IMG/VR virus record: IMGVR_UViG_3300021318_000003
Span: 27,496 to 91,495 of that record
DNA: 64,000 bases
Origin: a virus
Lineage: Duplodnaviria; Heunggongvirae; Uroviricota; Caudoviricetes
Reading direction: 5' to 3' (one strand)
A program made the translations under genes and the position numbers. This document shows positions 45,626-62,520 of this stretch, piece after piece (position 1 is the stretch's first letter; the number at the start of each line of letters is the position of its first letter). The notes under the pieces are model-generated. The model was not told the DNA's origin. It did no database searches and saw nothing but the letters and a program-made list of their open reading frames with translations.

Positions 45626-45659
45626 CCTTCCTCTCTTATTACAGAAAAAATCCACCTGC
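45626..45659 (-). promoter_or_regulatory. motif-B promoter 1 (GGTTAGCA-N17-TGTAAT)
   Basis: plus strand reads attaca-N17-gctaacc; upstream of 45210..45614. Confidence 0.5.
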
Positions 45660-45671
45660 TGCTAACCGCGA

Positions 45672-45989
45672 TCAAAAATTTTCCTCTTTGATCTCCAAAA
45701 CGCCGGTCGGCTTCCGGTCTCGCAGCTCGCCCTCGAAGTATCTCATGCACTCGCCGAGAATGACGCCGCGCTGAAAAGCGTTGAGGGAGTCGAGGTCGAT
45801 TTTCTCTCCGGTTCCATCCGTCAGCTCGCAGCGGTCTGGGATGGTATCGCCCTCCGCGCGAGAGAAGATCGCGTAGGTCGCGCGGAAGCCCCGCGTGCCG
45901 GAAAACATCGCCTTCGCCTGCTCCGGCGGCAATTTGTAAAGCCTTTGGAAATAGGCATGGTCGTCGATGATAAAGGTGACTTTTCTCAT
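45672..45989 (-). CDS. hypothetical protein
   Basis: start at MRKVTFII; last gene of a four-gene unit. Confidence 0.4.
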   Translation of the reverse strand: MRKVTFIIDDHAYFQRLYKLPPEQAKAMFSGTRGFRATYAIFSRAEGDTIPDRCELTDGTGEKIDLDSLNAFQRGVILGECMRYFEGELRDRKPTGVLEIKEENF

Positions 45990-46519
45990 TCCACGCCCAT
46001 CTCCTTCGCGAAGTTCTCGATCTGTTCCGCCGTCAACCATTCCGGTTTCTCCGGCAAAAGCGCGTAGACGGCGCGCATCAGCTCGATCTGCTCACGCTCA
46101 TCATGCGTCCACAGGTGCGGCGCGTAACGGCCTCCGTTGCCGAGGTAGTAGAGGCAATCCGACTTGAGGCGGTCGAGGAACATATAGTAGAAGCGATCGT
46201 CGTGGCCGCATAGATTGTATTTTCTCAGCGCGGCAAGCGTTTTCTGACAGGGGATGACCAGCTCCTCGTAGTGGCGGCGCGCGATCTCGACCTTATCCTC
46301 GCCGAATCCGTCGTAATTGACCAGGCACTCGTTTTTCAGCACGCGCGTCCAGTCGGCGCGACCACCGAAGCCCATTGCCTCCGCAACAACGGCAGTTGCA
46401 AAGCGAAGAACGAGGTCGGCGCTCTCCTTGCCGTTCTCGTGCATCAACCGCAGGTTTTCCAGCGCGGCGAGCACCTCCAAATCCTTCATCAGTCTCATGG
46501 CGTCACTCCTTTCCTTCAT
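45986..46519 (-). CDS. hypothetical protein
   Basis: 177-aa ORF. Confidence 0.45.
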   Translation of the reverse strand: MKERSDAMRLMKDLEVLAALENLRLMHENGKESADLVLRFATAVVAEAMGFGGRADWTRVLKNECLVNYDGFGEDKVEIARRHYEELVIPCQKTLAALRKYNLCGHDDRFYYMFLDRLKSDCLYYLGNGGRYAPHLWTHDEREQIELMRAVYALLPEKPEWLTAEQIENFAKEMGVE

Positions 46520-46793
46520 AACGAAACGCGAACGGCACGCCGACGCGATACGGATAAAGACAAAACCAGTCGTCGCCGGAAATGTTCAGCGCGTGCTTGC
46601 TACCATCCTTGCGGATGACGACTCGTGGGGATTTCTGAAAGAGACCGTCAAGCTGCGGTGCGTTGAATTTGCAGGCGTTTTCCACCAGCGTAATGATGAA
46701 CGACGCGCTCGTCTCCTTCATTCTGACGCGGACGTAGCCACCGAAGATGCCGCCCTCGTCGCTCTCCCATTTGTAGGTTCCAGATTTCAACAT
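46503..46793 (-). CDS. hypothetical protein
   Basis: 96-aa ORF. Confidence 0.4.
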   Translation of the reverse strand: MLKSGTYKWESDEGGIFGGYVRVRMKETSASFIITLVENACKFNAPQLDGLFQKSPRVVIRKDGSKHALNISGDDWFCLYPYRVGVPFAFRYEGKE

Positions 46794-47026
46794 GGTGCGT
46801 CCTCCTTTATCTCTTTGAAATAAAACCCCTGAACCTTCAGCGAGTAATTCTTATCGTTGGCTACGGCAAAACGCTTTTCCACACCTCGCTTCGTCCGATA
46901 GCTAAAAACGTCGCCGTCTCTTTTGATCGTTTCCGGGTTTTGCTTTTTCCAGTCCCGCACATAACAGGTGAAAGCGTACAACCTGTTCTTCTCGGTCAAT
47001 GACTCATAATTCACAAGCATAGGCAA
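46787..47026 (-). CDS. hypothetical protein
   Basis: 79-aa ORF directly behind promoter 2. Confidence 0.4.
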   Translation of the reverse strand: MPMLVNYESLTEKNRLYAFTCYVRDWKKQNPETIKRDGDVFSYRTKRGVEKRFAVANDKNYSLKVQGFYFKEIKEDAPC

Positions 47027-47041
47027 GCCCTCCTTCTGCTC

Positions 47042-47075
47042 TTATTACAGAAAAAAGAGCGCCGGTGCTAACCGA
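47042..47075 (-). promoter_or_regulatory. motif-B promoter 2
   Basis: attaca-N17-gctaacc; the -35 region is locally palindromic (cggtgctaaccg). Confidence 0.5.
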
Positions 47076-47091
47076 CGCTCAAAATTTTCCA

Positions 47092-49044
47092 TTATGCGGT
47101 GAGAAGAGGCATGGACGACGCGGGGGATATGATGTAGTTCTGCGGCGCGCGCATGACCTCCTCATACGCTTCGCGACCCTGGAACTCATCAATGACGGCG
47201 CGGGATTCCGCGTCCATGTCGTCATAGCCCTTCTTTCCATAGTCGGGCGGGAGCCACTGGCGGCCGCGCGCGGCGAAGATGTTGAGACGGTCGATCAGGC
47301 GCTTGGCGGACGGATCGAACTTGATGTGACACGTCCCTTTCTTGTAGAACGTCGCGGAGAAATACTTGAAATCCATCGACGTCCGGCAACAATCCTCCGC
47401 CGCCTGCGCGACGCGGTACGGATCGACCGACGAAGAGGTCTCGCCACGGTCAAGGTAGTTGAGAGAACGCTCGATGTCGGCAATCGTCTGCGCGAACTCA
47501 CGCGCCTCCAGCTTCTTCTTACCGTCGTACTTCGTGTAGAAAGCGTTGATCGGGAGAATGACCTTCATGCCAACCTTGTGCGCCTTGTTCGTCGCCCAGC
47601 CGTTATAGTAGTGGACGTTGTTCACGCACTCCGGATACCATGCGTGCTCAGCGGAAAGCTCGTCGAAGAGCTTGTAGATCGAATCCTCCACGCCGCGCGA
47701 GAGCTGCGCGGAAATCTCCATGATGACTCTCTTGATGTTGTAGCAACTGAAATCGTAATCCTGCATCTCGCGAATTTTGTCGTGATACTCGCTCTGGAGC
47801 TGCGACGTCATCTTTTCCGTAAGCTCCCTGCGAGAAAGCAGCGTCTCCCAGTATTTGTAACGGAGCTTGCGGAGATAGGCATTGATCGTGTCGCTCGTTG
47901 CGTGGTCACAGTCGCGGTCGTTCACGGAAATCTTGATAAGCGGCTTGTCGTATTCGCCCGTTCCGCTCATAATGTACGGCGCGAGCGCGTTGTATTCGCG
48001 CATGAGCGCGACGCCCAGCTTGGCCTCTATCTCGTAACCTGAAACCATCTGGTCGATCCAGTCGCCGGCAACCAGGTCTTCGACCTCGTTGTTGTGCTCC
48101 CCATCCTCCGCGCGTTCCGCTTTCTTGAGTTGTTCCAGAATGTGAGACTCGTGCCTCGGCTCCGGGATGTTCAGATAGACGATCGCAACCTCGACGTCAC
48201 TGCGGCGTTCCGCGCGGGAGAACGCGCCGGAAACAAACTCGATCTTTGCGTCGTATTTCTGGAGCTGCTGCTGCAACACCTTGCGGCGGTCGGTGTACGG
48301 ATTGCGGATGGTCTCGGCATTGAGCAGACACACGATCTGTCCACCGCTGTCACGCTGCATGGAAATCGCTTTGAGCAAGTGCTCATCGCCATTGGAAAAC
48401 GGCGGGTTCATAATAATCGCGTCGTAGTGCTTCATCGTGAAGTAGGTGAGAAAGTCATCGGATACCACGCGGTAGCCCTTGCCTTTGAGGATGAGCTGCA
48501 AATTCGCGTCGCGCTCAATGCAGTCAAATCGCTCCGTAAACCAATCGTCGCGGTAGTGGTATCCGCCTTTCTTGTAGAAGCACTTGACTGCGCACTCAAT
48601 GAGGTCGCCTTTACCTGCGGACGGCTCCAAAAACGTCTCGACCTTGCGCCAGTCAATCATGTTCGCCATCTTACCGGCGAGCTGCGTCGGCGTCGGAAAG
48701 AACTCGGCGTCCGGCGAAGCGGGCAGCGCGCGTACATCCGAATGAAGTGCCTCGCCGCTATGCTCCTTGTACCAATCCGCAAATATTTTCTTGCCCTCCG
48801 CAATGTTGCGGGCATATCCGATATTGTTAGACCTGCGATAGCGTCCGTCGACCTCCGTATAATAGGCCACCTCAATCGGCGTATCTTTGTGCCAGTGGTC
48901 GACGGCAAAGCGACCGTCCTCGTCGTAGGTCATGCAGGTGAGACATCCAATCGGCTGATCGCCTTTTGAGATAACGACCGTCTTTTCAGTAACGGGCTTT
49001 TCCCATCTGCGCCCACTGGTTATCTCCTCTTTATATAGGAACAT
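47092..49044 (-). CDS. N6-adenine DNA methyltransferase (gamma-class-like) with large extra domains
   Basis: FPTPTQLAGKMANMIDW..LEPSAGKGDL (motif I) and IIMNPPFSNG (motif IV); 650 aa. Confidence 0.75.
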   Translation of the reverse strand: MFLYKEEITSGRRWEKPVTEKTVVISKGDQPIGCLTCMTYDEDGRFAVDHWHKDTPIEVAYYTEVDGRYRRSNNIGYARNIAEGKKIFADWYKEHSGEALHSDVRALPASPDAEFFPTPTQLAGKMANMIDWRKVETFLEPSAGKGDLIECAVKCFYKKGGYHYRDDWFTERFDCIERDANLQLILKGKGYRVVSDDFLTYFTMKHYDAIIMNPPFSNGDEHLLKAISMQRDSGGQIVCLLNAETIRNPYTDRRKVLQQQLQKYDAKIEFVSGAFSRAERRSDVEVAIVYLNIPEPRHESHILEQLKKAERAEDGEHNNEVEDLVAGDWIDQMVSGYEIEAKLGVALMREYNALAPYIMSGTGEYDKPLIKISVNDRDCDHATSDTINAYLRKLRYKYWETLLSRRELTEKMTSQLQSEYHDKIREMQDYDFSCYNIKRVIMEISAQLSRGVEDSIYKLFDELSAEHAWYPECVNNVHYYNGWATNKAHKVGMKVILPINAFYTKYDGKKKLEAREFAQTIADIERSLNYLDRGETSSSVDPYRVAQAAEDCCRTSMDFKYFSATFYKKGTCHIKFDPSAKRLIDRLNIFAARGRQWLPPDYGKKGYDDMDAESRAVIDEFQGREAYEEVMRAPQNYIISPASSMPLLTA

Positions 49045-49086
49045 TGAAAAATCCTCCTCGGTACAAAATTTTGTCAGCTCGCACTT

Positions 49087-49120
49087 CTATTACCGAATGA
49101 TTCGGAAATCTGCTAACCAA
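49087..49120 (-). promoter_or_regulatory. motif-B promoter 3
   Basis: attacc-N17-gctaacc upstream of the 650-aa MTase. Confidence 0.5.
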
Positions 49121-49123
49121 AGC

Positions 49124-49157
49124 ATAAAAAAAAGACGCCGGAGCAATCCGGCGTCTT
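49124..49157 (-). terminator. rho-independent terminator
   Basis: GACGCCGGA-GCAA-TCCGGCGTC stem-loop followed by a T-run on the minus strand; downstream of 49170..49352. Confidence 0.6.
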
Positions 49158-49169
49158 GCGCGTATTCCG

Positions 49170-49352
49170 TTACAGCAGCTCCCAGCACGCCCAGTAATCG
49201 TACTCGGTCTCGTTGACGTAGATGGTGTTGCCATCATCAAAGTAGCTTCGCAGCCACTCATCGTATGCTTCGGGGCTTCCGGCCTCCCATCTGCGCTCCT
49301 CAAGCCAGTCGCGCAGATCGTTCACGCTGGTAAACTGGTGCTCAACCGCCAT
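49170..49352 (-). CDS. hypothetical protein (60 aa)
   Basis: small acidic ORF right after DGR target 2. Confidence 0.35.
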   Translation of the reverse strand: MAVEHQFTSVNDLRDWLEERRWEAGSPEAYDEWLRSYFDDGNTIYVNETEYDYWACWELL

Positions 49353-49370
49353 GTCACGCCTCCTTTCCGG

Positions 49371-50003
49371 TTACTCCGCGAGAACCAAGATCGAAGAGTC
49401 AAGAGTCAAAAACGGGCGAACGCCGTAGCCGCAGCCACAGTCGTACCAGCGCAGGACACCACTGGAGCCGACGCAGCAGACGAGGCGAGAATAACCGTTG
49501 CTCGGCGTGGAAGCTGGCGTGATCGTCCACCACCAGTTTTCGTACTCGGGCTGCAAGCCGAGAATTTTGTGGTACTTCGCGTACTCGGCGGCGGTCAGCA
49601 GGCTGATGTAATCCTTGCACTCGCCGTAATCATCGAGGCCATCGAGCGAGGTCAGGTCGCGCTCCATCGCAAGGATGTGCTCGCCGCCGATGATCGCCGC
49701 GATTTTTTTGAGGTATTCGCCGTGCAGCTTCTCGCGGATGGGCGATTCCATCCAATGCGAGCTGTCGCCGAACTCCTCGTCGTTGTAGGCGAAGCCCTCG
49801 GAGATGACGCGCGTGCCGTCGCTCGTGTGCTCCAGAACGATGAACGTCTCATCGCCGATTGGGAAGGTATCGCCAGGAGAGAGGGAAGAGAGCAGAACCT
49901 TGCCAGCATTGCGCAGCGGCTCCAGTGCGGCGGCGTCCGGAACCTCGATGATGACCTTGTTGCCGTCGACGGTGATCTTGCTCTTGTCAAATTCCAACTT
50001 CAT
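49371..50003 (-). CDS. DGR target protein 2 (paralogue of target 1)
   Basis: C-terminus WWWTITPASTPSNGYSRLVCCVGSSGVLRWYDCGCGYGVRPFLTLDSS; shares the F.VLEH(S/T) core with target 1; VR2 at its 3' end. Confidence 0.8.
   Translation of the reverse strand: MKLEFDKSKITVDGNKVIIEVPDAAALEPLRNAGKVLLSSLSPGDTFPIGDETFIVLEHTSDGTRVISEGFAYNDEEFGDSSHWMESPIREKLHGEYLKKIAAIIGGEHILAMERDLTSLDGLDDYGECKDYISLLTAAEYAKYHKILGLQPEYENWWWTITPASTPSNGYSRLVCCVGSSGVLRWYDCGCGYGVRPFLTLDSSILVLAE
49409..49487 (-). repeat. DGR variable repeat VR2 (remote, about 13 kb from TR)
   Basis: differs from TR only at TR-adenine positions (AAC to CTC, GGC, CGC or TAC; GAC to GGC; and so on); IMH-like GATCGAAGAGTC..AAAACGGGCG shared with VR1. 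Confidence 0.8.
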
Positions 50004-50040
50004 GTAGTTGTTCCTCCTTTTTTTGTGTTGTTGGACAGCT

Positions 50041-50074
50041 ATACTACGGAAAGAACGGGCGGCTTGCTAACCGC
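50041..50074 (-). promoter_or_regulatory. motif-B promoter 4 (drives DGR target 2)
   Basis: actacg-N17-gctaacc; the -35 lies inside hairpin AACGGGCGG..CCGCCCGTT, which also ends the upstream gene. Confidence 0.5.
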
Positions 50075-50089
50075 CCGTTCAAATTTCCC

Positions 50090-51019
50090 TTACACCTTGG
50101 CCGCGACCATCGCGGTGAGCTTGTCCATGAGGACGTGGCCGTCCATGATGCGTCCCCAGTTGTTCTCGCGGTAGTTCTGCGTTTGGCGGCGCGGCGCGTT
50201 GTGGGAGATCATGTCGCTCATGGCGTTGATCGCGCCCCAGCCGGTGTTACGGAACTTCAAGAGGTCGGGCGCAAACCAACAGACCATATACTCATCCTTG
50301 ATCGTCTTGATGTTGTTCTTCTCGCGGTCGCTCGCGTCTTCCTTGAGCGGGAACAGCTCGTTGAGAAACTTCTGGATTTCGGCATCCGTGACGGTCGTGT
50401 TGGCGAGCTGGTCGGCATAGACGCCGAGCTGTTCCATATACTTGCCGGCCATATCAAGGCAGCGATGCGCCTCCGCGAGCTTCATCTGAAGATCGCCGGT
50501 GTGACGAGCCGCCCAGGTGCGCTTCGCGCTGGAAAGCGCGAGGTTGAGCGTGTTGTTGCAGACCACACGAATCGGCGTCATGCAGACGCGAATCGCACCG
50601 CTCCCGTCGTGGGAGTTGGTGAAGCACAGGTACGGCTCCGTCTTGTCTCCGACGATCTCCGTGTCGGGCAGCTTCGCCAGCAGCCAGATCTTTTTGCCTC
50701 CGCTCAGGCTTCCCGCCGTCTCGTAGTGGACGTCGCCGCCGATGAGGTTGTCCGTAAACGCGAACGCATCCGTATTCTGGCAGACAGCATATCGGTTGGA
50801 GACAACGCCGAGCACAGCGCCGTCCGAGGAGCGGACGTTGGCCTTGTAGTTTTCGATTTTCCTGCCGCCGCAGACCTGCATGGTCTTCTGATCGACGCGC
50901 CAGTCCAGACCGGCAAGGCGCAGCGCATCCGCGCTCGTGGGAGCCTCCGCGACCATCGTGCCGAGACCGTGCCACGGCTTCTCGCGGACGTACATCATGG
51001 TTTCAACATTTGCGGGCAT
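50090..51019 (-). CDS. DUF932-like phage/plasmid protein
   Basis: N-terminal MMYVREKPWHGLG and overall pattern of the TIGR03299/DUF932 family. Confidence 0.5.
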   Translation of the reverse strand: MPANVETMMYVREKPWHGLGTMVAEAPTSADALRLAGLDWRVDQKTMQVCGGRKIENYKANVRSSDGAVLGVVSNRYAVCQNTDAFAFTDNLIGGDVHYETAGSLSGGKKIWLLAKLPDTEIVGDKTEPYLCFTNSHDGSGAIRVCMTPIRVVCNNTLNLALSSAKRTWAARHTGDLQMKLAEAHRCLDMAGKYMEQLGVYADQLANTTVTDAEIQKFLNELFPLKEDASDREKNNIKTIKDEYMVCWFAPDLLKFRNTGWGAINAMSDMISHNAPRRQTQNYRENNWGRIMDGHVLMDKLTAMVAAKV

Positions 51020-51070
51020 TTTTCAAATCCTCCTTATAGTTTTGATTTGTCGTTTGTGGTGCTTACGGTA

Positions 51071-51104
51071 CTATTACGGAAAGAAAACGGCGTTTGCTAA
51101 CCAC
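51071..51104 (-). promoter_or_regulatory. motif-B promoter 5
   Basis: attacg-N17-gctaacc. Confidence 0.5.
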
Positions 51105-51109
51105 ATCGT

Positions 51110-51547: not shown

Positions 51548-51566
51548 TCGGCGTCACCTCCTACCT

Positions 51567-51600
51567 TATTTACAGACGTTTTCTGTGATTTGCTAACCGC
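51567..51600 (-). promoter_or_regulatory. motif-B promoter 6
   Basis: tttaca-N17-gctaacc. Confidence 0.45.
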
Positions 51601-52252: not shown

Positions 52253-52264
52253 TCGCGTCCTCCT

Positions 52265-52495: not shown

Positions 52496-52504
52496 CTCCT
52501 GTTT

Positions 52505-52538
52505 CTACTACTGAAAAAATCTGAAATATGCTAACCGG
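52505..52538 (-). promoter_or_regulatory. motif-B promoter 7
   Basis: actact-N17-gctaacc. Confidence 0.45.
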
Positions 52539-52543
52539 TTGAT

Positions 52544-53814: not shown

Positions 53815-53834
53815 GACAGCGCCTCCTTTCTGCT

Positions 53835-53869
53835 GATATTACAGAAAAAGAGGACGGTTTTGCTAACCG
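53835..53869 (-). promoter_or_regulatory. motif-B promoter 8
   Basis: ttacag-N17-gctaacc; the -35 sits in hairpin GAGGACGGTT..AACCGTCCTC. Confidence 0.45.
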
Positions 53870-54461: not shown

Positions 54462-54485
54462 GTTGTCCTCCTTTCTATTCTGTCT

Positions 54486-54519
54486 ATATAACAGAAGAAA
54501 AGGCCGGTTTGCTAACCGG
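54486..54519 (-). promoter_or_regulatory. motif-B promoter 9
   Basis: ataaca-N17-gctaacc; the -35 sits in hairpin AGGCCGGTT-TGCT-AACCGGCCT; the TAG inside GGTTAGCA is the stop codon of the upstream gene. Confidence 0.5.
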
Positions 54520-55396: not shown

Positions 55397-55432
55397 GATG
55401 AAATCCTCCTTGTAATTCTGATGTTTCCACCT

Positions 55433-55466
55433 TTATTACAGATTGTTCTTTAAATTTGCTAACCAT
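55433..55466 (-). promoter_or_regulatory. motif-B promoter 10
   Basis: attaca-N17-gctaacc. Confidence 0.5.
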
Positions 55467-55467
55467 T

Positions 55468-55740: not shown

Positions 55741-56042
55741 TTTCCGTCGCAGTAGAGACCGCCGCTGCGCTTTGCGTTTTCCATACGGCGGAGAAAACAG
55801 GCCATTAGTTCCGCAAAGTGCTCGTCGCTGATGTAGTAATCAAGAGTATCTTCGTCGTCCTCCTTGACCGAAAGATCACCTGGTTCGACGTCTCCGTCCG
55901 CGACGCCATTCATCAGCCAGCCCTCAAAAATATACTCGTTGTTGATCTGTCGCGCGATGAACTCCATCGCTTTGACCATCTTGATACGTTTCACCTTGTT
56001 CATTGTGAAAACCTCCGTTTCTTGAATTGGGTTCCCATCCAT
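55725..56042 (-). CDS. hypothetical protein
   Basis: 105-aa acidic ORF. Confidence 0.4.
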   Translation of the reverse strand: MDGNPIQETEVFTMNKVKRIKMVKAMEFIARQINNEYIFEGWLMNGVADGDVEPGDLSVKEDDEDTLDYYISDEHFAELMACFLRRMENAKRSGGLYCDGKCSAE

Positions 56043-56074
56043 ATAACAGAAAGCCGGCGCGATCTGCTAACCGC
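56041..56074 (-). promoter_or_regulatory. motif-B promoter 11
   Basis: ataaca-N17-gctaacc; the -35 lies in hairpin CCGGCGCG..CGCGCCGG, which doubles as terminator for the upstream gene. Confidence 0.5.
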
Positions 56075-56087
56075 GCCGGTCGATTTT

Positions 56088-56387: not shown

Positions 56388-56399
56388 TTGACATACCTC

Positions 56400-56606: not shown

Positions 56607-56624
56607 TCAAACCACCTCCCAGTG

Positions 56625-56658
56625 TTATTACGGAAAGAAAACCGGTTTTGCTAACCGT
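56625..56658 (-). promoter_or_regulatory. motif-B promoter 12
   Basis: attacg-N17-gctaacc. Confidence 0.5.
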
Positions 56659-56993: not shown

Positions 56994-57010
56994 GCTCATC
57001 GCCTCCACCC

Positions 57011-57044
57011 ATATAAGAGAGCGGCTCCATAATTTGCTAACCAC
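57011..57044 (-). promoter_or_regulatory. motif-B promoter 13
   Basis: ataaga-N17-gctaacc. Confidence 0.45.
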
Positions 57045-57048
57045 TGAG

Positions 57049-57078
57049 AAAAAGAAAAAAGGCGGGCTTTCGCCCGCC
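57049..57078 (-). terminator. rho-independent terminator
   Basis: GGCGGGC-GAAA-GCCCGCC hairpin then a T-run on the minus strand. Confidence 0.65.
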
Positions 57079-57086
57079 TCGTTCCG

Positions 57087-57482
57087 TCACAGATGTTTGA
57101 TGTCCTCCATCAGCGTCTTCGGCGTCAGGTAGAGATCAAAATACTCCTTCGTGTACTGCGTATCAGGGCAAAAATGCACGCCCTCCTCGTCCTGCTCCTC
57201 GCCGCACGCCGTCCAGCGGTCATAGCTGCGCTGAACAAGCGGAGCGTCCTCGCTGTGTCCCCATCCGGTGTAAGTGGAGCGAACAAGCTCGAAAATGTAG
57301 GTATTGCCGCTCTTGCGAACGCGCACGGCCTCTGCGACCGCTTTCTTGAGCGCGTCCAGCCACTCCGCAACGTCGCCGAATGTGGTGTCGCGGTCGATTT
57401 GGATCTCCTTCCCCGTCGTGATCTCGCGCTTGCCGGTCTTCGTGTATTTGCTGTATGCCAACTTGAAGCTCAGATTCTTCAT
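57087..57482 (-). CDS. hypothetical protein
   Basis: 131-aa ORF. Confidence 0.45.
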   Translation of the reverse strand: MKNLSFKLAYSKYTKTGKREITTGKEIQIDRDTTFGDVAEWLDALKKAVAEAVRVRKSGNTYIFELVRSTYTGWGHSEDAPLVQRSYDRWTACGEEQDEEGVHFCPDTQYTKEYFDLYLTPKTLMEDIKHL

Positions 57483-57520
57483 GCTCGTGTCCTCCGTTTC
57501 TGATTTTGGGATTTCTACCT

Positions 57521-57554
57521 ATATTTCAGAAGTTTTTCACTTGTTGCTAACCAT
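57521..57554 (-). promoter_or_regulatory. motif-B promoter 14
   Basis: atttca-N17-gctaacc; the TAG stop of the upstream gene again lies inside GGTTAGCA. Confidence 0.45.
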
Positions 57555-58353
57555 CCAGCTCCGCGAAATACTGCCTGTACGCTTCCAGATACGCGCGGCG
57601 CTGGACGTCGTTGAAACACGCATCATCGAAATACTTGTTGACGTCCGCGTCGTCGCCGCGCCAGGGAATTGCGGCAAAAGCTCCGATCGTGTCAAAATCC
57701 GCCTGCCAGTTGATATGATACTCGTGATTGGCCATCTCGTATTTGAACGCATCCACCCAGTAGTCGAAATTTTCCAGCGTTCCATCTTTCGCCGCTTCCA
57801 GCGCCGCATAGAGCTGATCTTGACGGTCACGAAAATCCTTGTCGGCGTAGTAGCAGAAGGAAATGTCGCTGTAATAGGGATAATTCCCCTTCAGCCGGTC
57901 AAAGACGCTCTGCTCCTTGATGTGCGTGACCGTCGCTCCGCTGTAGTCGATTCCAAAAATGGACAGATGATCGACGCGCAGCGGGTAGAGGTCGCGCAGA
58001 AAACGCTCGCGGCGCTGAAATTCGTCGTACTCCGCCAGCGGCGCGGTCAGCTCATCATCCGTGAAAAGCGTCCGGCGCAGCTTTTCCTCGTACAGCGCGC
58101 GCAGCTCCTCGTGCGTTTTCTTGTGCTGATCCTCGTCCCACTGCGTCGGACGGTGGTGCAGCTCGTAGTCGTTGGCATACTTGATGTGATGACCGTTGCA
58201 GAAAACCAGCGCGCTGAATCCAAAATAGCCGCCGAAATCCACAAAGCAGACGTCGTGGTCTTTGATGACCGTCGTGTCCTCCGCCAACTCAAACGCGGCG
58301 TCCTCGTCCAGCGCCTCAATGTCAGCGATTGTCCAGGTCTTTGTGTTCTCCAT
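57547..58353 (-). CDS. hypothetical protein
   Basis: start at MENTKTWTI; the R-rich upstream extension in the track is not coding. Confidence 0.45.
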   Translation of the reverse strand: MENTKTWTIADIEALDEDAAFELAEDTTVIKDHDVCFVDFGGYFGFSALVFCNGHHIKYANDYELHHRPTQWDEDQHKKTHEELRALYEEKLRRTLFTDDELTAPLAEYDEFQRRERFLRDLYPLRVDHLSIFGIDYSGATVTHIKEQSVFDRLKGNYPYYSDISFCYYADKDFRDRQDQLYAALEAAKDGTLENFDYWVDAFKYEMANHEYHINWQADFDTIGAFAAIPWRGDDADVNKYFDDACFNDVQRRAYLEAYRQYFAELDG

Positions 58354-58391
58354 GTCGTGCTCCTCTCCGGCCTTGCGGCCTTGTTCTGTAT

Positions 58392-58425
58392 ATACTTGAG
58401 AATGGATTTTTGTCCTGCTAACCAA
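58392..58425 (-). promoter_or_regulatory. motif-B promoter 15
   Basis: acttga-N17-gctaacc. Confidence 0.4.
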
Positions 58426-58442
58426 ACGAATGAAATTTTCCA

Positions 58443-58475
58443 AAAAAAAGAGGCGGGCATCTTTGCCCGCCTCCG
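58443..58475 (-). terminator. rho-independent terminator
   Basis: GAGGCGGGC..GCCCGCCTC hairpin then TTTTTTTT. Confidence 0.65.
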
Positions 58476-58484
58476 TGCGTTCCG

Positions 58485-58988
58485 TCACGCGCCGATCTTG
58501 ACCCTGCCATCCGTGTCGACGACCTCGCTGCCGTAATAGCCGCGAATGTCGTCCATCGAAAGACTGCGGCTGGAGCACTTGCGGTAGCCGTCGCGGTGGA
58601 AATACCACGCGCTTTTGTTACTGCTCCACCGGAAGGACAGCGCCTTCAGCTCCTCCTTGTGCGGCTTCGTGTCGCCCGTCACCCACAGCCAGGAGCCGCA
58701 GACCTCGATCTGTACGCCCTCCATGTGGATAAGGCGCTCGATCACGTCCATGAACTCTTCCGCAGTTTCCGTCGTCGCCGTGCGGCTGGTGTAAAATTCT
58801 CCGTCTTTGTTCTGGTGGACGTCCTTGAGGCGCGCAAAGAGCTTTTCATACTCCGCGTTGATCTGCTGCATATCCACGGTGCTGCCGCCCATGTCCGGGT
58901 GATGCTTCATTGCAAGGCGCTTGTACTGTTTCTTCAGCTCTTCCAGCGTTTTCGGATTATCAAACCACTTCATTTTTGTGTCCTCCAA
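58485..58988 (-). CDS. J-domain (DnaJ-like) protein
   Basis: LEELKKQYKRLAMKHHPDMGG is a J-domain with the HPD motif. Confidence 0.7.
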   Translation of the reverse strand: MEDTKMKWFDNPKTLEELKKQYKRLAMKHHPDMGGSTVDMQQINAEYEKLFARLKDVHQNKDGEFYTSRTATTETAEEFMDVIERLIHMEGVQIEVCGSWLWVTGDTKPHKEELKALSFRWSSNKSAWYFHRDGYRKCSSRSLSMDDIRGYYGSEVVDTDGRVKIGA

Positions 58989-59014
58989 AAATCTTGATTT
59001 GGGATTCTCTGATG

Positions 59015-59048
59015 ATATAACAGAACGATTTCATGCCTTGCTAACCGG
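59015..59048 (-). promoter_or_regulatory. motif-B promoter 16
   Basis: ataaca-N17-gctaacc. Confidence 0.5.
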
Positions 59049-59071
59049 CAAAATGATATTTTTTTTGACGC

Positions 59072-59100
59072 AAAACAGAAAAGGCGGGCTTGCGCCCGCC
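59072..59100 (-). terminator. rho-independent terminator
   Basis: GGCGGGC..GCCCGCC hairpin plus T-rich tail; preceded by GGAACGGAACAACGGAATAGAATGGAACGG in the 3' UTR. Confidence 0.6.
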
Positions 59101-59129
59101 GTTCCATTCTATTCCGTTGTTCCGTTCCA

Positions 59130-59384
59130 TCAGGCCGCGAGCGCGTCCAGCGCGAACATGAACGCCGCCGCCTCACGATCGGAGCTGATGAAATCCAGCC
59201 GGAACTTTGCAAACTCGCCGACGAATTTCTGAAAGCTCGCGTTTTCGCGCAGGAGCCTGTCAAACTCCGCGACCGCTTCCCGCGCGCCGGCGATCTCCGC
59301 GTTGCGTCCCGCCGCGTCGTACAGTGCGGCATATTCCTTTTTGAACTGCTCCGCAAAGCGATTGATGTTGACGTTGATCTCCAT
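59130..59384 (-). CDS. hypothetical protein
   Basis: 84-aa ORF. Confidence 0.4.
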   Translation of the reverse strand: MEINVNINRFAEQFKKEYAALYDAAGRNAEIAGAREAVAEFDRLLRENASFQKFVGEFAKFRLDFISSDREAAAFMFALDALAA

Positions 59385-59426
59385 GATTTTGTCCTCAGTG
59401 TTGTCCGGCTTTCGCCTGTTCTATCC

Positions 59427-59460
59427 ATATATCAGAAGAAAATCCGCGCTTGCTAACCAG
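59427..59460 (-). promoter_or_regulatory. motif-B promoter 17
   Basis: atatca-N17-gctaacc. Confidence 0.5.
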
Positions 59461-59491
59461 GCGTTGCAAAAAGTTTTCGGGATTTACAACG

Positions 59492-59521
59492 AAAAAAGGC
59501 GGCGGAAATCCATCCGCCGCC
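59492..59521 (-). terminator. rho-independent terminator
   Basis: GGCGGCGGA..TCCGCCGCC hairpin then TTTTTT; 3' UTR carries ACGGAACGGAACGACGGAACGG. Confidence 0.6.
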
Positions 59522-59541
59522 CGTTCCGTCGTTCCGTTCCG

Positions 59542-59952
59542 TTATGCGATCTCCGCCTTTTTCAGCGCCGCGATATGCTCCGCCGCGAGCGCCATGATCT
59601 TGTCGTCGTCAAAATCCGCCGACAGCTTGCACAGCTCGCTCCAGCTCCGCTTGTTCTGTTTCGTTCCGATCTCCACGCTCGCGCCCATGCCGGTCGACAC
59701 CATCATGCCCTCCGTGTGTCCGGGGTTCCAGATCTGCAGGTGAATGTGCGGCTGCTGCTCGCCCGTCAGCCGGTAGCCGTCGCGGACGTCGTGATATTCC
59801 AGCGTCGCCTGCAGGATTCTTCCGCCGTCCAGTTCGATGTTGCGGCGCGCGATCTTCTCGCCCCACATCACAAAGTGCCGCGCGTCAAATCTGAATCCGC
59901 CGTGAAGCTGCGCGTTCCATTTCTGCGCCTGTTCCCTTGTGAGCCTTGCCAT
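59542..59952 (-). CDS. HIT-like protein (HxHxQ variant)
   Basis: PHIHLQIWNPGHTEG resembles the histidine-triad loop of HINT-type hydrolases, with Gln in place of the third His. Confidence 0.4.
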   Translation of the reverse strand: MARLTREQAQKWNAQLHGGFRFDARHFVMWGEKIARRNIELDGGRILQATLEYHDVRDGYRLTGEQQPHIHLQIWNPGHTEGMMVSTGMGASVEIGTKQNKRSWSELCKLSADFDDDKIMALAAEHIAALKKAEIA

Positions 59953-59995
59953 CGTTCTATCCTCCGTGTTCTGTAAATTTTTGGGATTTCCACTT

Positions 59996-60029
59996 ATATA
60001 ACAGACGGATTCCGCCGTTTGCTAACCGT
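59996..60029 (-). promoter_or_regulatory. motif-B promoter 18
   Basis: ataaca-N17-gctaacc. Confidence 0.5.
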
Positions 60030-60053
60030 TCCGAAAAAAATATTTTTGCCCTT

Positions 60054-60090
60054 CCGAAAAAAAAGAAAAGGCGGAGCCGTAAAGCTCCGC
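60054..60090 (-). terminator. rho-independent terminator
   Basis: GGCGGAGC..GCTCCGCC hairpin then a T-run. Confidence 0.6.
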
Positions 60091-60100
60091 CCGTGTTCCG

Positions 60101-60280
60101 TTACGGCTCCAGCTTGACCTCCAGAACGGCGTCATACATCGGGTATTTTGTCGCGTAGACGTCCGTGATGATCCGCCCGCCCGTCGCCCTGGTTCCGTCG
60201 TATCGTTCCACCGTTCCGTCGTTCTTGCGGATGAAGATATGACAGCGCGGCGCGATGTTCCACAGCTCCAACAGTGTCAT
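60101..60280 (-). CDS. hypothetical protein (about 59 aa)
   Basis: start at MTLLELW behind GGAGGG-N8. Confidence 0.35.
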   Translation of the reverse strand: MTLLELWNIAPRCHIFIRKNDGTVERYDGTRATGGRIITDVYATKYPMYDAVLEVKLEP

Positions 60281-60401
60281 TCTCTCAGCCCTCCGTTCCA
60301 AGCTCCGCCGTCGCGATCTCCATCGCGGCGGTTTCCGTCAGGCCATCCTCCAGTAGCATGTTCACAAGCTCCGCATAACTCATTTTTTCCGTCCTCCTTA
60401 A

Positions 60402-60575
60402 ATTTCAATGTCGGTCAGCTCGTAGTATTCCAGCAGCTCCAGCGCGTTCGTCCAGTCGCCAAGGTCGTACCGTTCCGCCGCCTGTTCCACCATCTCGCGA
60501 TAGGTCAGAAGCTCACCCGTTTCGATGTTCTGATAGTAGCGCGTGCGTGGGAAAGTATCGCGTGCCGTTTTCATG
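60402..60575 (-). CDS. hypothetical protein (about 57 aa)
   Basis: my own translation MKTARDTFPRTRYYQNIETGELLTYREMVEQAAERYDLGDWTNALELLEYYELTDIEI; RBS GGAGGAACGGAAC. Confidence 0.35.
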
Positions 60576-60658
60576 TGTTCCGTTCCTCCGTTCGTCTAAC
60601 TCGCGTCGTCCGGTGTTCTCCGCAGCTCTTGCCGCAGTCCGTCGCGCGGTTCCCATCC

Positions 60659-60692
60659 ATATAACAGAAACTTTCCCGCGTTTGCTAACCGG
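60659..60692 (-). promoter_or_regulatory. motif-B promoter 19
   Basis: ataaca-N17-gctaacc; about 70-nt leader to the 60402..60575 ORF. Confidence 0.5.
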
Positions 60693-60921
60693 CGGAAAAA
60701 TAAATTTTGTCGCTCCAAAATCCGCCGCCGTTCCGGAAACGAAAAGCGGCGAGCTTATCCAGCCCGCCGCGCTTGTTCCGTTTTCCGTTTCGGTTCCGTC
60801 CGCCGTTCCGCCTTGTGCGCCGTCCGCCGTGCTCCAGCCATTCCACCAGGCGCATAAACCAGCTTGCGAGCGTCAGCGCGCCAGCGACGACCACGACGTA
60901 ATATAAAGCCGTGTATTCCAT
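60685..60921 (-). CDS. possible small single-pass membrane protein with basic tail
   Basis: MEYTALYYVVVVAGALTLASWFMRLVEW then R/G/N-rich tail that is simply translated GTTCCG repeats; may be shorter or spurious. Confidence 0.3.
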   Translation of the reverse strand: MEYTALYYVVVVAGALTLASWFMRLVEWLEHGGRRTRRNGGRNRNGKRNKRGGLDKLAAFRFRNGGGFWSDKIYFSAG

Positions 60922-61002
60922 CCGTTCCGCTCCTTCCGTTCCGTTTGTGTCGTTCCATTGGCGACGGCGAGCCGTTCCAGCAGCCCGCCGCGCCGCATCC
61001 CG

Positions 61003-61362
61003 TCAGATAAAATACATTTCGCCGTTCAGCTCCAAGGCTACGGCCTCTTGCCCCATTTCCGCCTTGAGCTTTTCGCAGTGCTCCACGACCTCGCCGATAT
61101 GCTCCTGCAGGTCAGCGTCGGCGGCGTAGGCAAAAACAACGGTGGTGTTCTCCGCAACCAGACCGGCCGCAGGGCTGAGCCAATAGCCAAGCGCAGGCGT
61201 CGACGTCGCCCCGCCGAAAAGCTGAGAGAGCAGCGCCGCCGTCGCCTTGACCTGTTCCGTATTGTCGGCGGCCTTGTCTACGTCCGCAGTCGCGGGAACG
61301 TAAACGGTAATCTTGCTGGACAGCTTGAAGCAGTGCTGCAGCTTTGCATTGTTGATCGTCAT
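61003..61362 (-). CDS. hypothetical protein
   Basis: 119-aa ORF; first gene behind promoter 20; the 5' UTR holds the stem GCGCGCCG..CGGCGCGC. Confidence 0.45.
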   Translation of the reverse strand: MTINNAKLQHCFKLSSKITVYVPATADVDKAADNTEQVKATAALLSQLFGGATSTPALGYWLSPAAGLVAENTTVVFAYAADADLQEHIGEVVEHCEKLKAEMGQEAVALELNGEMYFI

Positions 61363-61421
61363 GGTGGTGTTCTCCTTTTCGTTTTGAAGTAGCGCGCCGC
61401 AGCCGTAACCACGGCGCGCCT

Positions 61422-61455
61422 ATACATGAGATTAGATTTTTGGCTTGCTAACCGT
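61422..61455 (-). promoter_or_regulatory. motif-B promoter 20
   Basis: acatga-N17-gctaacc directly downstream of the sigma-like gene. Confidence 0.45.
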
Positions 61456-61475
61456 TCCGGAAAATTTTCTTACAT

Positions 61476-62276
61476 GTGCAGCGCGGTCAACTGCTCGCGC
61501 ATCTTGACAATACGCTTATGCACTGCAACATTGGAGATCGTGCCGATGTCGGCGGCAATCTCGCGCTCCGTATAACCGCGCCCGACCAGCTCCAGAATGC
61601 GGTCGTTGATTTCGTCGCAGCCGTTCCGGAAGCTCGCAACATCCGCCTTCAGAATCGCGGCGCGTTCCGTGTCGTCAGCAGCCGCACAGATCGACTCGAC
61701 CGCGCTCACCGTCTCGCCGTCTTCCGTTTCAAGCTCGCGCACGCTCGCGGCGCTGTGCTTCGTGTCCTGGTAGAAGATCGCTGCAATGCTCGCGTCGGCA
61801 GCTTCGTATACCAGCTTGACCAGCGTCAGCGGGCGCTTGCCCTGTGCCGCGCGGCGCTCGTTGCGCTTCGTCAGCTTGTCAGCGTCGGCGAGCTTGACCG
61901 ACAGGCGCAGCCACGTTTCAGAAACGAACTCGTCAAGATCGTGCAGGCCGTACAGACCGAAGGCGGGAACCTCAGAAAACTGCAGGTAGTGGTCTTCGGT
62001 GCTGTACTTGATGCGGTCTTTCGCGGCTTTGTGGATGCACTTCTTCATAAAAGCGATCTGCTCGCCCTCAGACAGGGCAGCCCAAGCGGAAACGACGCGC
62101 GCCGCGTTGCGCTCAGCGTTCGCGCCTTCAGCCTCAGCCCACGCCATACGCAGGCAGGCGCTCCAGAGGACTTCGGAAACCTTGCAGCCGATTTCAGAGG
62201 CAGCAGCGCGGCGGATGTCCCACGCGCGGAGCATAACGGAAGCGTTGCGGGTGGTGGTGTTGGTGGTGGTTTTCAT
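61476..62276 (-). CDS. sigma-70-family-like transcription factor (region-4 HTH)
   Basis: C-terminal NDRILELVGRGYTEREIAADIGTISNVAVHKRIVKMREQL resembles sigma region 4.2; 268 aa; sits at the upstream end of the motif-B array. Confidence 0.55.
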
Positions 62277-62285
62277 GGTGGTGAT

Positions 62286-62317
62286 CTCCTTTTCGATAAA
62301 TATTTGTCGTGCTACGG
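62286..62317 (-). promoter_or_regulatory. motif-A element upstream of the sigma-like gene
   Basis: ctccttttcgataaatatttgtcgtgctacgg. Confidence 0.4.
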
Positions 62318-62520
62318 GAAGAGGAGAAGCGGAGCTGGAGCAGAAGCACCGGAGCGCCGCGCGCCCTTTCCCTTGACACTTATAATTATAGCACCTTGCC
62401 CCATAAAAGGCAAGAAATTATTGGCGTGCTAACCACAAAATAGTGTAGATTTTTGGCGTGCTATTTTGTGCAAAATGACGAAGCCGAAAAGATGCGCTGG
62501 AGCCGATCGAATTGGCGAAG

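Follow-up and report, generated by a model that had tools for sequence, protein, structure and literature searches.

In the hyperplastic regions of T4-type phages, small PeSL elements recur between accessory genes that are mostly orphans, each combining an AT-rich stretch with a promoter and a terminator stem-loop. The stem-loop at times overlaps the promoter boxes, and indel or replacement breakpoints between related phages fall at the elements. The promoters of these elements conform to the host's sigma70 consensus and are transcribed by the unmodified host holoenzyme immediately after infection (PMC2839356, PMC4122927). In Bacillus phage SPO1, a sigma cascade operates in which gp28 serves the middle genes and gp33/gp34 the late genes, with the late promoter CGTTAGA-N17-19-GATATT (PMC3601020). 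The group-5 sigma factors (TcdR, BotR, TetR and UviA) read promoters with a -35 box TTTACA and a -10 box GTTATA, GTTAAT or GTATAT (PMC4031146). ECF sigma factors (group 4, among them SigW, sigmaE, CnrH and AlgU) combine sigma2 and sigma4 in a core of ~190 aa.

The window analysed here, a 64-kb stretch of phage DNA, holds an array of bipartite elements beside a gene for a 268-aa protein, and the best reading of the sequence is that this protein is a previously unrecognised phage sigma factor and that the array is akin to the PeSLs of T4. Like these, the array is built of repeated promoter and terminator units between ORFans, with stem-loops that at times overlap promoter boxes and with breakpoints at the elements. 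It differs in that its promoter is non-canonical, departing from the host sigma70 consensus, and appears dependent on a phage-encoded sigma, and in that it belongs to a temperate phage with Gram-positive Clostridia as hosts. With SPO1 the locus would share a phage sigma replacing the host sigma and a dedicated bipartite promoter class, as proposed here; GTTAG is common to the -35 boxes, and a small conserved partner-like gene follows the sigma gene (119 aa here, gp33 in SPO1). The resemblance to the SPO1 late promoter in the original prediction holds for this -35 core, but the -10 box differs. There is also no detectable sequence relationship to gp34, because PHROG matches are confined to function-unknown families, and the regulon is a variable accessory region rather than the late structural genes of SPO1.

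Group-5 factors, too, are small divergent sigma70-family proteins on mobile elements of Clostridia with a dedicated gene set, and their promoters are close to the array element (-10 the same or nearly, GTTATA or GTAATA; -35 similar, TTAGCA vs TTTACA). In contrast, the recognition helix of the 268-aa protein (...ISNVAVHKRIVKMR...) has SNVAVHKR where region 4.2 of group-5 factors has its diagnostic SRQ, the -35 box reads GGTTAGCA, the protein has an extra N-terminal module and a region 2 insertion, and the regulon comprises ~20 promoters in a phage, compared with a few promoters of toxin or bacteriocin genes. In sequence-profile and structural comparisons the protein matches ECF factors best, and it resembles them in sigma2-sigma4 architecture; rigid spacing and a -35 box of high specificity are typical of their promoters. 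However, the protein falls below every Pfam threshold and bears an N-terminal Gp111-like extension, no anti-sigma factor was identified for it, and the promoter has neither the (G)AAC at -35 nor, CCGTAAT variants apart, the CGT at -10 that mark ECF promoters.

The repeated element

By exact-string count, GGTTAGC occurs 22 times in the window, on the minus strand only and between 44428 and 62434, against an expectation of 3.8 +/- 1.9 and at most 10 copies in 100 shuffles. When the copies are aligned on this first box, a second box stands at a fixed distance in 20 of the 22. A position matrix (PWM) whose training sites came solely from the distant relatives L004, L005 and L007 finds exactly 20 bipartite sites in the window, GGTTAGCA-N15-CTGTWATA, all on the minus strand, in agreement with the original prediction of 20 minus-strand elements with a 17-nt spacer. 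Their scores run from 12 to 53 against a best of 7.1 in shuffled sequence, and no site is found on the plus strand or within 1-45 kb. The array had been placed at 45626-62440; its 20 sites stand, but the outer GGTTAGCA copies at 62434 and 44434 lack a second box and lie outside the class. Among box-carrying sites of the window and its relatives (81 unique sites), the spacing is identical in 78 of 84, and the consensus reads tTTTtt-N5-c-GGTTAGCAAA-N12-TCTGTaATA-nnAnT-A/G-G, with a conserved Y-R-G predicted start site 6-8 nt downstream of the second box. The geometry, GTTAGC-N17-TGTAAT with rigid spacing, is of the sigma70-family type. The -10 box TGTAAT has G at -11 and so is not the host sigma70 consensus; a sigma70 consensus scan detects the sigma gene's own promoter and 0 of the 20 array sites; the original prediction had noted that the -10-like hexamer lacks the position-2 A of sigma-A.

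All 20 sites lie between genes or at the very 3' end of the ORF before them. At four sites the upstream stop codon is the TAG within GGTTAGCA, and site 56656 is placed 28 nt before the end of an ORF. The predicted start is 13-80 nt from the next ATG, so that the elements do lie shortly before start codons, and at least 11 terminator-like hairpins with T-runs on the gene strand precede most units, again as anticipated. In four units by scan and one by folding, ~5-6 overall, the -35 box sits inside the terminator hairpin. Strong folding is confined to 5-6 of the 20 sites, the others giving dG of about -2 to -9 without a common structure; where present, the hairpins run into T-runs like terminators. 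On this ground, the idea of a conserved hairpin (RNA or ssDNA) presenting GGTTAGCA in its loop was rejected, and the element lacks the obligatory hairpin of the N4 virion RNAP and plasmid Frpo promoter class. No Rfam family was matched, and no tRNA was found within the array.

Units of the array

The putative promoters, all on the minus strand, are numbered from the sigma-like gene onwards, and the upper coordinate of each is the first G of its first box. Promoter 1 (61417..61453; PWM 15.3), with the irregular -10 box CTCATGTA, precedes the conserved 119-aa gene (61003-61362) and a 78-aa gene (60685-60921). At promoter 2 (60654..60690; PWM 34.8) the box TAG is the stop of the upstream ORF, as it is at promoters 7, 12 and 15, and genes of 58 aa (60398-60574) and 59 aa (60101-60280) follow. 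Promoters 3 to 6 each have a terminator upstream and one gene downstream: promoter 3 (59991..60027; PWM 53.2; terminator 60069-60092) a 136-aa gene (59542-59952), promoter 4 (59422..59458; PWM 32.5; terminator 59497-59522) an 84-aa gene (59130-59384), promoter 5 (59010..59046; PWM 36.2; terminator 59083-59100) a 162-aa J-domain gene (58485-58973; DnaJ, 28 bits), and promoter 6 (58387..58423; PWM 20.2; terminator 58449-58474), whose -10 box CTCAAGTA is also irregular, an orphan of 268 aa (57547-58353). Promoter 7 (57516..57552; PWM 23.7) serves a 131-aa gene (57087-57482), and promoter 8 (57006..57042; PWM 26.4; terminator upstream at 57059-57080) a 121-aa gene (56628-56993). Promoter 9 (56620..56656; CCGTAATA; PWM 48.3) overlaps the final codons of the preceding ORF and is followed by genes of 68 aa (56400-56606) and 99 aa (56088-56387). 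The -35 box of promoter 10 (56036..56072; PWM 16.8) lies within a terminator hairpin (56054-56079, dG -20.8), ahead of genes of 92 aa (55725-56003) and 64 aa (55522-55716).

Promoter 11 (55428..55464; PWM 49.4) is followed by a 207-aa zinc-ribbon-like gene (54773-55396) and an 80-aa gene (54512-54754). Promoter 12 (54481..54517; PWM 44.1), its -35 box within a terminator hairpin (54500-54523, dG -17.2), serves a 193-aa gene (53880-54461). In promoter 13 (53831..53868) the spacer is longer by 1 nt, so that the score of 19.6 is for a register shifted by 1; its -35 box lies within the terminator hairpin 53850-53874, and genes of 132 aa (53416-53814), 66 aa (53219-53419) and 205 aa (52589-53206) follow. 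Promoter 14 (52500..52536; CAGTAGTA; PWM 40.2) heads genes of 73 aa (52265-52486), 151 aa (51797-52252) and 67 aa (51593-51796), promoter 15 (51562..51598; PWM 28.0) a 145-aa gene (51110-51547), and promoter 16 (51066..51102; CCGTAATA; PWM 28.4) a 309-aa DUF932 gene (50090-51019; E 1.3e-58). Promoter 17 (50036..50072; CCGTAGTA; PWM 12.1), with its -35 box within a hairpin at ~50053-50080 (dG -27.1), precedes a 210-aa DUF6273 gene (49371-50003), a remote DGR target with the DGR repeat at 49384-49503, and a 60-aa gene (49170-49352). Promoter 18 (49082..49118; CGGTAATA; PWM 32.9; terminator upstream at 49132-49157) precedes a 650-aa gene (47092-49044) for a Dam-type methyltransferase with DUF4942. 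Promoter 19 (47037..47073; PWM 33.8), with the -35 box in a terminator hairpin (47057-47080, dG -20.3), heads genes of 77 aa (46787-47020), 96 aa (46503-46793), 170 aa (45986-46498, LPD11) and 105 aa (45672-45989). Promoter 20 (45631..45667; PWM 41.7), the last of the array, is followed by genes of 134 aa (45210-45614), 280 aa (44371-45213) and probably 314 aa (43417-44361); the orphan GGTTAGCA before the latter (44427..44434, minus strand) has no second box, scores below the PWM threshold and is not a promoter.

The cargo comprises ~37 genes, mostly orphans, at 1-4 per promoter, and most of the cargo proteins searched have no Pfam or PHROG match. The predicted DGR target, 650-aa methyltransferase, J-domain protein, DUF932 protein and orphans are all present; a HIT-like protein, also predicted, was not found among the searched array proteins, the smallest ORFs excluded (Pfam E<=0.01, PHROGs E<=0.001).

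The sigma-like protein

The sigma-like gene predicted to head the array does so and encodes 268 aa with a sigma4 HTH, but it occupies 61470..62276 on the minus strand including the stop codon, not a stretch from 61476. The protein consists of an N-terminal module of ~60-90 aa (Phage_Gp111-like), sigma2-like helices at 113-176 and a sigma4 HTH at 202-266. This HTH has the regions 4.1-4.2 expected of a -35-binding domain, and its recognition helix ...SNVAVHKRI... is nearly invariant. In the HMM search proposed as a check, the protein passes no curated-threshold Pfam sigma model, Sigma70_r2 included, and the narrow family profile A1 retrieves a generic HTH only. The broadened profile A3, the only one to reach sigma factors, aligns with the full length of SigW (profile 21-193, SigW 25-183; E 1.2e-5). 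Profile A3 also matches AlgU and sigmaE less significantly, and region 2.1 of Mtb SigE aligns to it as a separate stretch. An AF2 model places three helices at 113-176 with pLDDT ~80-90 (a single-sequence model, pLDDT 44, was unusable); the case for region 2 consists of the one SigW alignment (E ~1e-5) and these predicted helices. A single-sequence PDB search returned noise, with kinase matches at E ~0.7. The PHROG search matched none of the annotated sigma families, its two hits being weak and to families without assigned function. The protein belongs to a family of at least 528 clusters at 50% identity, labelled hypothetical or Phage_Gp111 in databases. Together, profile and structure prediction support its assignment as a very divergent ECF-like sigma factor with sigma2, sigma4 and an added N-terminal module.

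The sigma gene has a housekeeping-type promoter of its own, TTGCCT-N17-TATAAT with a TG extension (62385..62413, minus strand), ~108 nt before the ATG and with 10/12 consensus matches in the sigma70 scan. In L001 and L004-L007, too, a promoter of the sigmaA type precedes the sigma gene by 90-108 nt, and one can be recognised by eye in L009-L011. An orphan GGTTAGCA (62427..62434, minus strand), without a TGTWAT partner, stands 13 nt upstream of the sigmaA -35; the arrangement recurs in L001, L005 and L006, and the orphan may be an autoregulatory sigma4 site.

Related phages

The sigma gene, the 119-aa gene and the motif array occur together in every relative examined, a co-occurrence that is partly circular since the relatives' loci were retrieved via the sigma protein, and the cargo genes turn over. 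Relatives with all three include Dysosmobacter and Hominicoprocola prophages. The 119-aa protein (phrog_3543, unknown function) is 71-100% identical across all relatives. The promoter elements are enriched for homology breakpoints (P=3e-4), although breakpoints would be drawn to intergenic DNA in any case. Megablast against GenBank phages gave no close relative, and a related-locus search with P0153 found none. A neighbouring integrase-family protein was considered as an MrpR-like dead recombinase acting as repressor; this is unsupported because HxxR, H and Y are retained in its alignment to XerA.

Which factor reads the array

The sequence evidence makes the 268-aa factor the most likely reader of the array promoters, which supports the dedicated sigma of the original prediction; the whole set would therefore switch on only when the phage makes the factor. 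An unlikely alternative is that the host housekeeping holoenzyme initiates with an activator bound at GGTTAGCA (class II or sigma appropriation, MotA-like as in T4), the 268-aa protein being that activator and not a sigma. Region 2 sequence support is weak in this protein, GGTTAGCA also sits upstream of the sigma gene's sigmaA promoter, and a 3-nt register shift yields TGn-(T/A)ATA(T/A)N, a nearly consensus extended -10 (TGTAATAAT) in relatives such as L007. Slightly less probable again is that the promoters are real but read by a second sigma-type protein of 200 aa, with the 268-aa protein as, for example, a regulator or anti-sigma. The gene for this protein shares the array's genome neighbourhood (~5 kb past the window end, L001:4118-4720), and it is the only phage protein to pass a curated Pfam sigma model (Sigma70_r2, 27.5 vs cutoff 24). 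However, by tblastn it occurs in L001, L003 and L006 alone; L004, L005 and L007, which have the identical motif, lack it in their 10-kb flanks. Its gene is neither adjacent to the array nor co-oriented, and the 268-aa protein itself bears sigma2-like and sigma4 features. The group-5 likeness of both boxes (PMC4031146) would also suit a host alternative sigma of Oscillospiraceae whose regulon signal the phage borrows, but we think this quite improbable, as the motif accompanies the phage sigma gene through hosts and metagenomes and its multi-copy clusters turned up in phage contigs, always on the array strand.

Two further readings were weighed. SPbeta-like phages have dispersed intergenic repressor-binding repeats (PMC10516654), and the clustering of homology breakpoints at the element would also suit an operator or recombination site that does not initiate, like the SPBRE repeats, to which the SPbeta repressor MrpR binds. 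This is very improbable: element orientation strictly follows the genes, the bipartite spacing is rigid, a purine start site is conserved, the distance from the element to the RBS is short and fixed, and the elements come directly after terminators, so that downstream genes would otherwise have no promoter; a 21-mer that is also repeated in this genome makes a better operator candidate. We give least credence to a YonO-like single-subunit RNA polymerase as reader. A 940-aa candidate, encoded outside the window, and a YonV_C protein adjoin the region in all relatives, but the identity of the 940-aa protein comes from an ADFDSD motif recognised by eye, and a bipartite -35/-10 arrangement spaced by 17 nt is characteristic of a sigma-dependent multisubunit polymerase. 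Such a reader is unlikely because YonO uses one promoter in SPbeta and a PDB sequence search with the 940-aa protein gave no match.

Proposed mechanism and significance

We consider it probable that the locus is a sigma-gated accessory-gene array in a ~130-kb temperate SPbeta-like phage of gut Oscillospiraceae. As read from the sequence, host RNA polymerase with the housekeeping sigma would fire TTGCCT-N17-(TG)TATAAT upon infection or induction, and the 268-aa protein would be made. By homology and structure prediction, it would then displace the host sigma on core polymerase. Geometry, conservation and co-occurrence suggest that its sigma4 recognition helix would bind the invariant -35 box GGTTAGCA, that sigma2 would read TGTAAT or TGTTAT, with G where the host sigma needs A-11, and that transcription would begin at Y-R-G, often right at the Shine-Dalgarno. 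The 20 promoters would each drive 1-4 genes, with an intrinsic terminator predicted to close each unit. In evolutionary terms, the conserved ~50-bp terminator-promoter composite would mark the boundaries of cassettes that related phages gain, lose and exchange, with all cargo presumably under one phage-made switch and silent in lysogens. A more tentative and rather doubtful extension is an integron-like platform, in which one orthogonal sigma would act as master switch and the terminator-promoter joint would double as a homologous-recombination site for cassette exchange among a large family of gut phages, making captured genes early-lytic and lysogen-silent. Genes for anti-defence and host takeover would probably be among the cassettes, as would a DGR-diversified protein, and the Gp111-like module or the 119-aa partner might supply one more control input.

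This reading proposes a function for a large protein family labelled hypothetical or Phage_Gp111, together with its likely DNA target at single-base resolution, and would explain the arrangement of the most variable genes in widespread phages of this kind. If confirmed, it would provide a compact pair of orthogonal sigma and promoter for the poorly tractable Clostridia, a search rule (GGTTAGCA-N15-CTGTAATA) for early accessory and candidate anti-defence genes in metagenomes, and a Gram-positive, sigma-dependent counterpart of T4 PeSL cassette shuffling. Prophages of this kind are present in the cultured strains Dysosmobacter segnis BX15 and Hominicoprocola fusiformis CLA-AA-H269, and the system is therefore directly testable.

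A bipartite element confined to one strand

The window has 22 copies of the box GGTTAGC, all of them on the minus strand and confined to 44,428–62,434; chance would predict 3.8 +/- 1.9 copies, and the maximum across 100 shuffles was 10. When all copies were aligned on this box, 20 carried a second conserved box at a fixed distance, and the outermost GGTTAGCA copies, at 62434 and 44434, were without it. To avoid circularity, a position matrix was trained solely on the sites of three distant relatives (L004, L005 and L007) and used to scan both strands of the whole window. The scan recovered exactly 20 sites, which lie on the minus strand from 45,667 to 61,453 and score 12–53, against a best score of 7.1 in shuffled sequence; the plus strand and the remaining 45 kb yielded none. 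The array reported in the original prediction is thus real. Each of its 20 sites either is intergenic or falls at the extreme end of the ORF before it.

Among 81 unique sites from the window and its relatives, the consensus is tTTTtt-N5-c-GGTTAGCAAA-N12-TCTGTaATA-nnAnT-R-G, with identical spacing in 78 of 84 box-bearing sites. Expressed as GTTAGC-N17-TGTAAT, the element is spaced precisely as sigma70-family promoters are, and the positions 6–8 nt past the hexamer are a pyrimidine (89%), a purine (96%) and G (89%), the signature that would be expected of a start site. The second box must be the -10 element, because the ribosome-binding site (RBS) in relatives can come just 6 nt past TGTAAT-AAT, leaving no room for another. 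We assign these elements as promoters with high confidence.

Organization, cargo and turnover of the array

Coding in the window is almost wholly on the minus strand, where real genes have a GC3 of ~0.75, and plus-strand ORFs are shadows. Each predicted promoter is followed, after a predicted 5′UTR of 13–80 nt, by an AGGAGG-type RBS and one to four genes, making ~37 genes in total. In four units (60685–60690, 57547–57552, 54512–54517 and 51593–51598), the TAG in GGTTAGCA is the stop codon of the upstream gene, so that coding sequence, terminator and next promoter are packed without spare bases. At least 11 terminator-like hairpins with T-runs lie between units on the gene strand. The -35 box falls inside the stem-loop in four hairpins (56079, 54523, 53874 and 47080), as well as in a strong hairpin at 50072, but the remaining copies do not fold, which rules out the hairpin as a structural requirement of the element and makes it a terminator that sometimes overlaps a promoter. 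No Rfam family and no tRNA was found in the array.

Family matches confirm the J-domain protein, the DUF932 protein and the 650-aa methyltransferase (Dam+DUF4942) originally predicted as cargo, and a DGR repeat confirms the DGR target, while the predicted HIT-like protein was not found among the array proteins searched. LPD11, zinc-ribbon and DUF6273 proteins are also encoded, and most other array proteins are without a family. The DGR is complete, with an RT gene (34958–35821, minus strand), a template repeat (35836–35955) and two variable repeats in DUF6273 proteins (36355–36474 and 49384–49503). In the first variable repeat, 11/11 core differences from the template fall at template adenines, and in the second 15/16 do (80-nt core). 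This second repeat, the third DGR repeat copy, is carried by the DUF6273 gene at 49371–50003, a target 13 kb away and inside the array. Genes for tRNA-Met (CAT) and tRNA-Ser (GCT) adjoin the DGR region at 34289–34361 and 34440–34528 (minus strand).

Relatives carry other cargo, including a PemK toxin and SprT-like, DarA_C and DUF6927 proteins. In L001, a relative whose 268-aa protein (described below) is 100% identical, the array nevertheless diverges directly after the 119-aa gene. Homology-block boundaries between arrays cluster near the element: 11 of 38 unique boundaries fall in the interval from -45 to +32 around the box, where 8.8% would be expected (P = 3e-4). For L001 and L006, both close relatives, the boundaries are offset by -1, -1, -3, -4, -17, -19 and -20 nt. 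Part of this enrichment is expected anyway, because genes are the natural units of gain and loss. The pattern matches the description of PeSL cassettes in T4-type phages (PMC2839356, PMC4122927), although PeSLs have host-type promoters and the array does not.

A divergent predicted sigma factor at the head of the array

The 268-aa protein encoded at 61470–62276 (minus strand) was not recognised as a sigma factor by direct search. Pfam gave solely a borderline match to Phage_Gp111 (residues 14–90) and no sigma model, PHROGs gave only two weak families of unknown function, a PDB search with the single sequence returned noise, and a profile of close homologues reached only generic HTH proteins (E ~0.02). 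The family comprises 257 close matches and 528 clusters in a 50%-identity library, and many distant members are only 170–200 aa long and match positions ~62/114–268; the N-terminal ~60 residues are therefore an add-on to a core of ECF-sigma size. These short relatives repeatedly give sub-threshold matches to Sigma70_r4_2 and Sigma70_ECF. A broadened profile that includes them (A3) reaches the solved sigma factors sigmaF (3.9e-6), CnrH, an ECF sigma (4e-6), and SigW (1.2e-5), with A3 positions 21–193 aligning to SigW residues 25–183 and spanning regions 2 and 4. Weaker matches were obtained to Mtb SigE (two stretches, regions 2.1 and 4), SigB, sigmaH, FliA, AlgU and sigmaE. The sigma character first proposed for this ORF is thereby supported on profile search. 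We take the 268-aa protein to be a highly divergent predicted sigma factor of ECF-like type, with firm support for sigma4 and less secure support for sigma2.

Linkage of the putative sigma gene to the promoter array

Eleven loci were fetched via the 268-aa protein, one of them the much more distant L008 and the others at 51–100% identity. In every one, a conserved 119-aa gene and 9–17 motif copies come after the sigma gene on its strand, although L003, which is truncated, has only 2 copies. The opposite strand of these loci has essentially no motif, and the sole copy upstream of the sigma gene is an orphan box by its own promoter. Searching from the motif alone recovered more than 114 stretches in viral contigs. 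Of 33 motif loci with three or more same-strand copies, 18 have the sigma gene, the 119-aa gene or both in the fetched stretch, always on the motif strand, and the sigma gene stands at the upstream end wherever both were fetched. At least 4 of the other 15 are fragments of contigs with either gene in another stretch.

The promoter of the sigma gene itself, the TG-extended TTGCCT-N17-TATAAT, is of canonical host type, and an equivalent lies 90–108 nt upstream of the sigma gene in every relative. With canonical promoters at this gene and at other phage control points, the array motif is evidently not preferred by the host housekeeping sigma. The sigma4 recognition helix, SNVAVHKRI, is nearly invariant, and so is the -35 box. 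In L008 (918–10403 of a 101-kb IMG/VR contig), AVHKRI is retained as the core of the helix and RGTTAGCA as the -35 box, at the same spacing, and the -10 box is altered to GGGTAGTTAAT, running into the RBS as GGGTAGTTAAT(A)TAGGAGG; in register, only G-T-A-n-T is kept. L008 is a natural specificity variant, useful to map the sigma residues that read the -10 element. Taken together, this linkage is the pattern that would be expected of a dedicated sigma and its regulon.

The 119-aa gene (61003–61362, minus strand) is the first gene of the array and encodes a phrog_3543 protein of unknown function. It shares 71–100% identity in every relative and is conserved unlike all other array cargo. By analogy with SPO1, where gp33 partners gp34, it may encode a partner or modulator of the sigma.

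Which factor reads the array

The co-occurrence of sigma gene, 119-aa gene and motif, together with the A3 matches, supports the original prediction of a dedicated sigma-like reader, with small corrections, and the 268-aa protein is probably the reader of the array promoters. There is only a slight chance that this role belongs to a second phage sigma of 200 aa, which does pass the Pfam Sigma70_r2 model (27.5 bits against a cutoff of 24) but turned up solely in L001, L003 and L006; the 10-kb flanks of L004, L005 and L007, which bear the motif, did not contain it. Reading by a YonO-like protein is unlikely. It is possible that the host sigma reads the array with the help of an activator, since a TGn extended -10 arises when the register is moved by 3 nt; however, the shifted register shows no conservation of T-7, L008 is without the TG, and the 268-aa protein looks like a whole sigma. 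That the element serves as an operator only is very improbable: such a role leaves its orientation, rigid spacing and start-site signature unexplained, and a different repeated 21-mer is a better operator candidate.

Comparison with known systems

Read by the 268-aa protein, the array would unite two known principles, the sigma cascade of phages such as SPO1 (gp28, gp33/34) and the cassette array of PeSL type. For SPO1 late promoters the original prediction gave the right consensus, CGTTAGA-N17-19-GATATT (PMC3601020); it has GTTAG in common with the array -35 box but differs in the -10 box, and no homology between gp34 and the 268-aa protein was detected. The closest promoter likeness is to those of clostridial group-5 sigma factors (-35 TTTACA; -10 GTTATA/GTTAAT/GTATAT), whose diagnostic SRQ motif is absent from the 268-aa protein (PMC4031146). 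The sigma clade is missed by current domain models and the promoter consensus is new, and no paper describing this sigma/promoter array was found in open-access literature text. The predicted regulon is unusual: late genes would be expected, but it covers the accessory region, the hypervariable part of this temperate phage. The finding, which is coherent, widespread and experimentally tractable, would give a large family of uncharacterised proteins a function and broadens established principles.

The phage and its host

The window encodes a DNA polymerase (17526–20810), a primase-helicase, NrdD and an RNA ligase, and contigs with an identical 268-aa protein are 126–130 kb long. Relatives are prophages in the cultured strains Dysosmobacter segnis BX15 (within a 388-kb contig) and Hominicoprocola fusiformis CLA-AA-H269, which makes this a temperate phage of Oscillospiraceae. 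Among the few plus-strand genes of the window, a Cro/CI-type HTH protein (40331–40906) is followed by a Peptidase_M78 (ImmA/IrrE) protein (40908–41618), an ImmR/ImmA-type module at 40.3–41.6 kb that is probably the lysogeny switch. TTGACA-type promoters lie in the divergent region 40158–40330.

A perfect TTGACA-N17-TATAAT promoter at 63447–63475 (plus strand), followed by a 21-mer-like element copy, precedes a tyrosine-recombinase-family gene (63480 to the window end; L001:7769–8677). In contrast to SPbeta MrpR, its product looks catalytically intact, with HxxR, H and Y retained when aligned to XerA. Outside the window, a conserved 940-aa protein (L007:296–3118, minus strand; equivalents in L001 and L003–L005) has no Pfam match and no PDB sequence match. 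It carries SGADFDSDTMM (ADFDSD motif), resembling the DFDGD metal-binding motif of two-barrel RNA polymerases such as SPbeta YonO, and its position beside a YonV_C-domain protein suggests an SPbeta-like phage lineage in Oscillospiraceae.

A second repeated element

The element (A)TAAGCAC-GACAATAATTTAT is repeated on the minus strand at 9627–9639, 16844–16856, 24851–24863, 28821–28833, 32561–32573, 32625–32637, 38607–38619 and 62296–62308, with related copies at ~62440–62470 (minus) and 63520–63545 (plus); at two mismatches or fewer there are 11 matches against 0.6 expected. At least seven genes of the replication/metabolism half have it 0–6 nt ahead of their AGGAGG RBS; it also occurs in the 5′UTR of the sigma gene and, like the array -35 box, contains TAGCA. 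Its possible roles are those of an operator, another class of promoter or a 5′UTR element. In relatives, lineage-specific versions flank the promoter and RBS of the sigma gene, and an exact GACAATAATTTAT copy (L001:4102–4114) lies just downstream of the stop of the 200-aa sigma gene (L001:4118–4720, minus strand), ~5 kb past the high end of the window.
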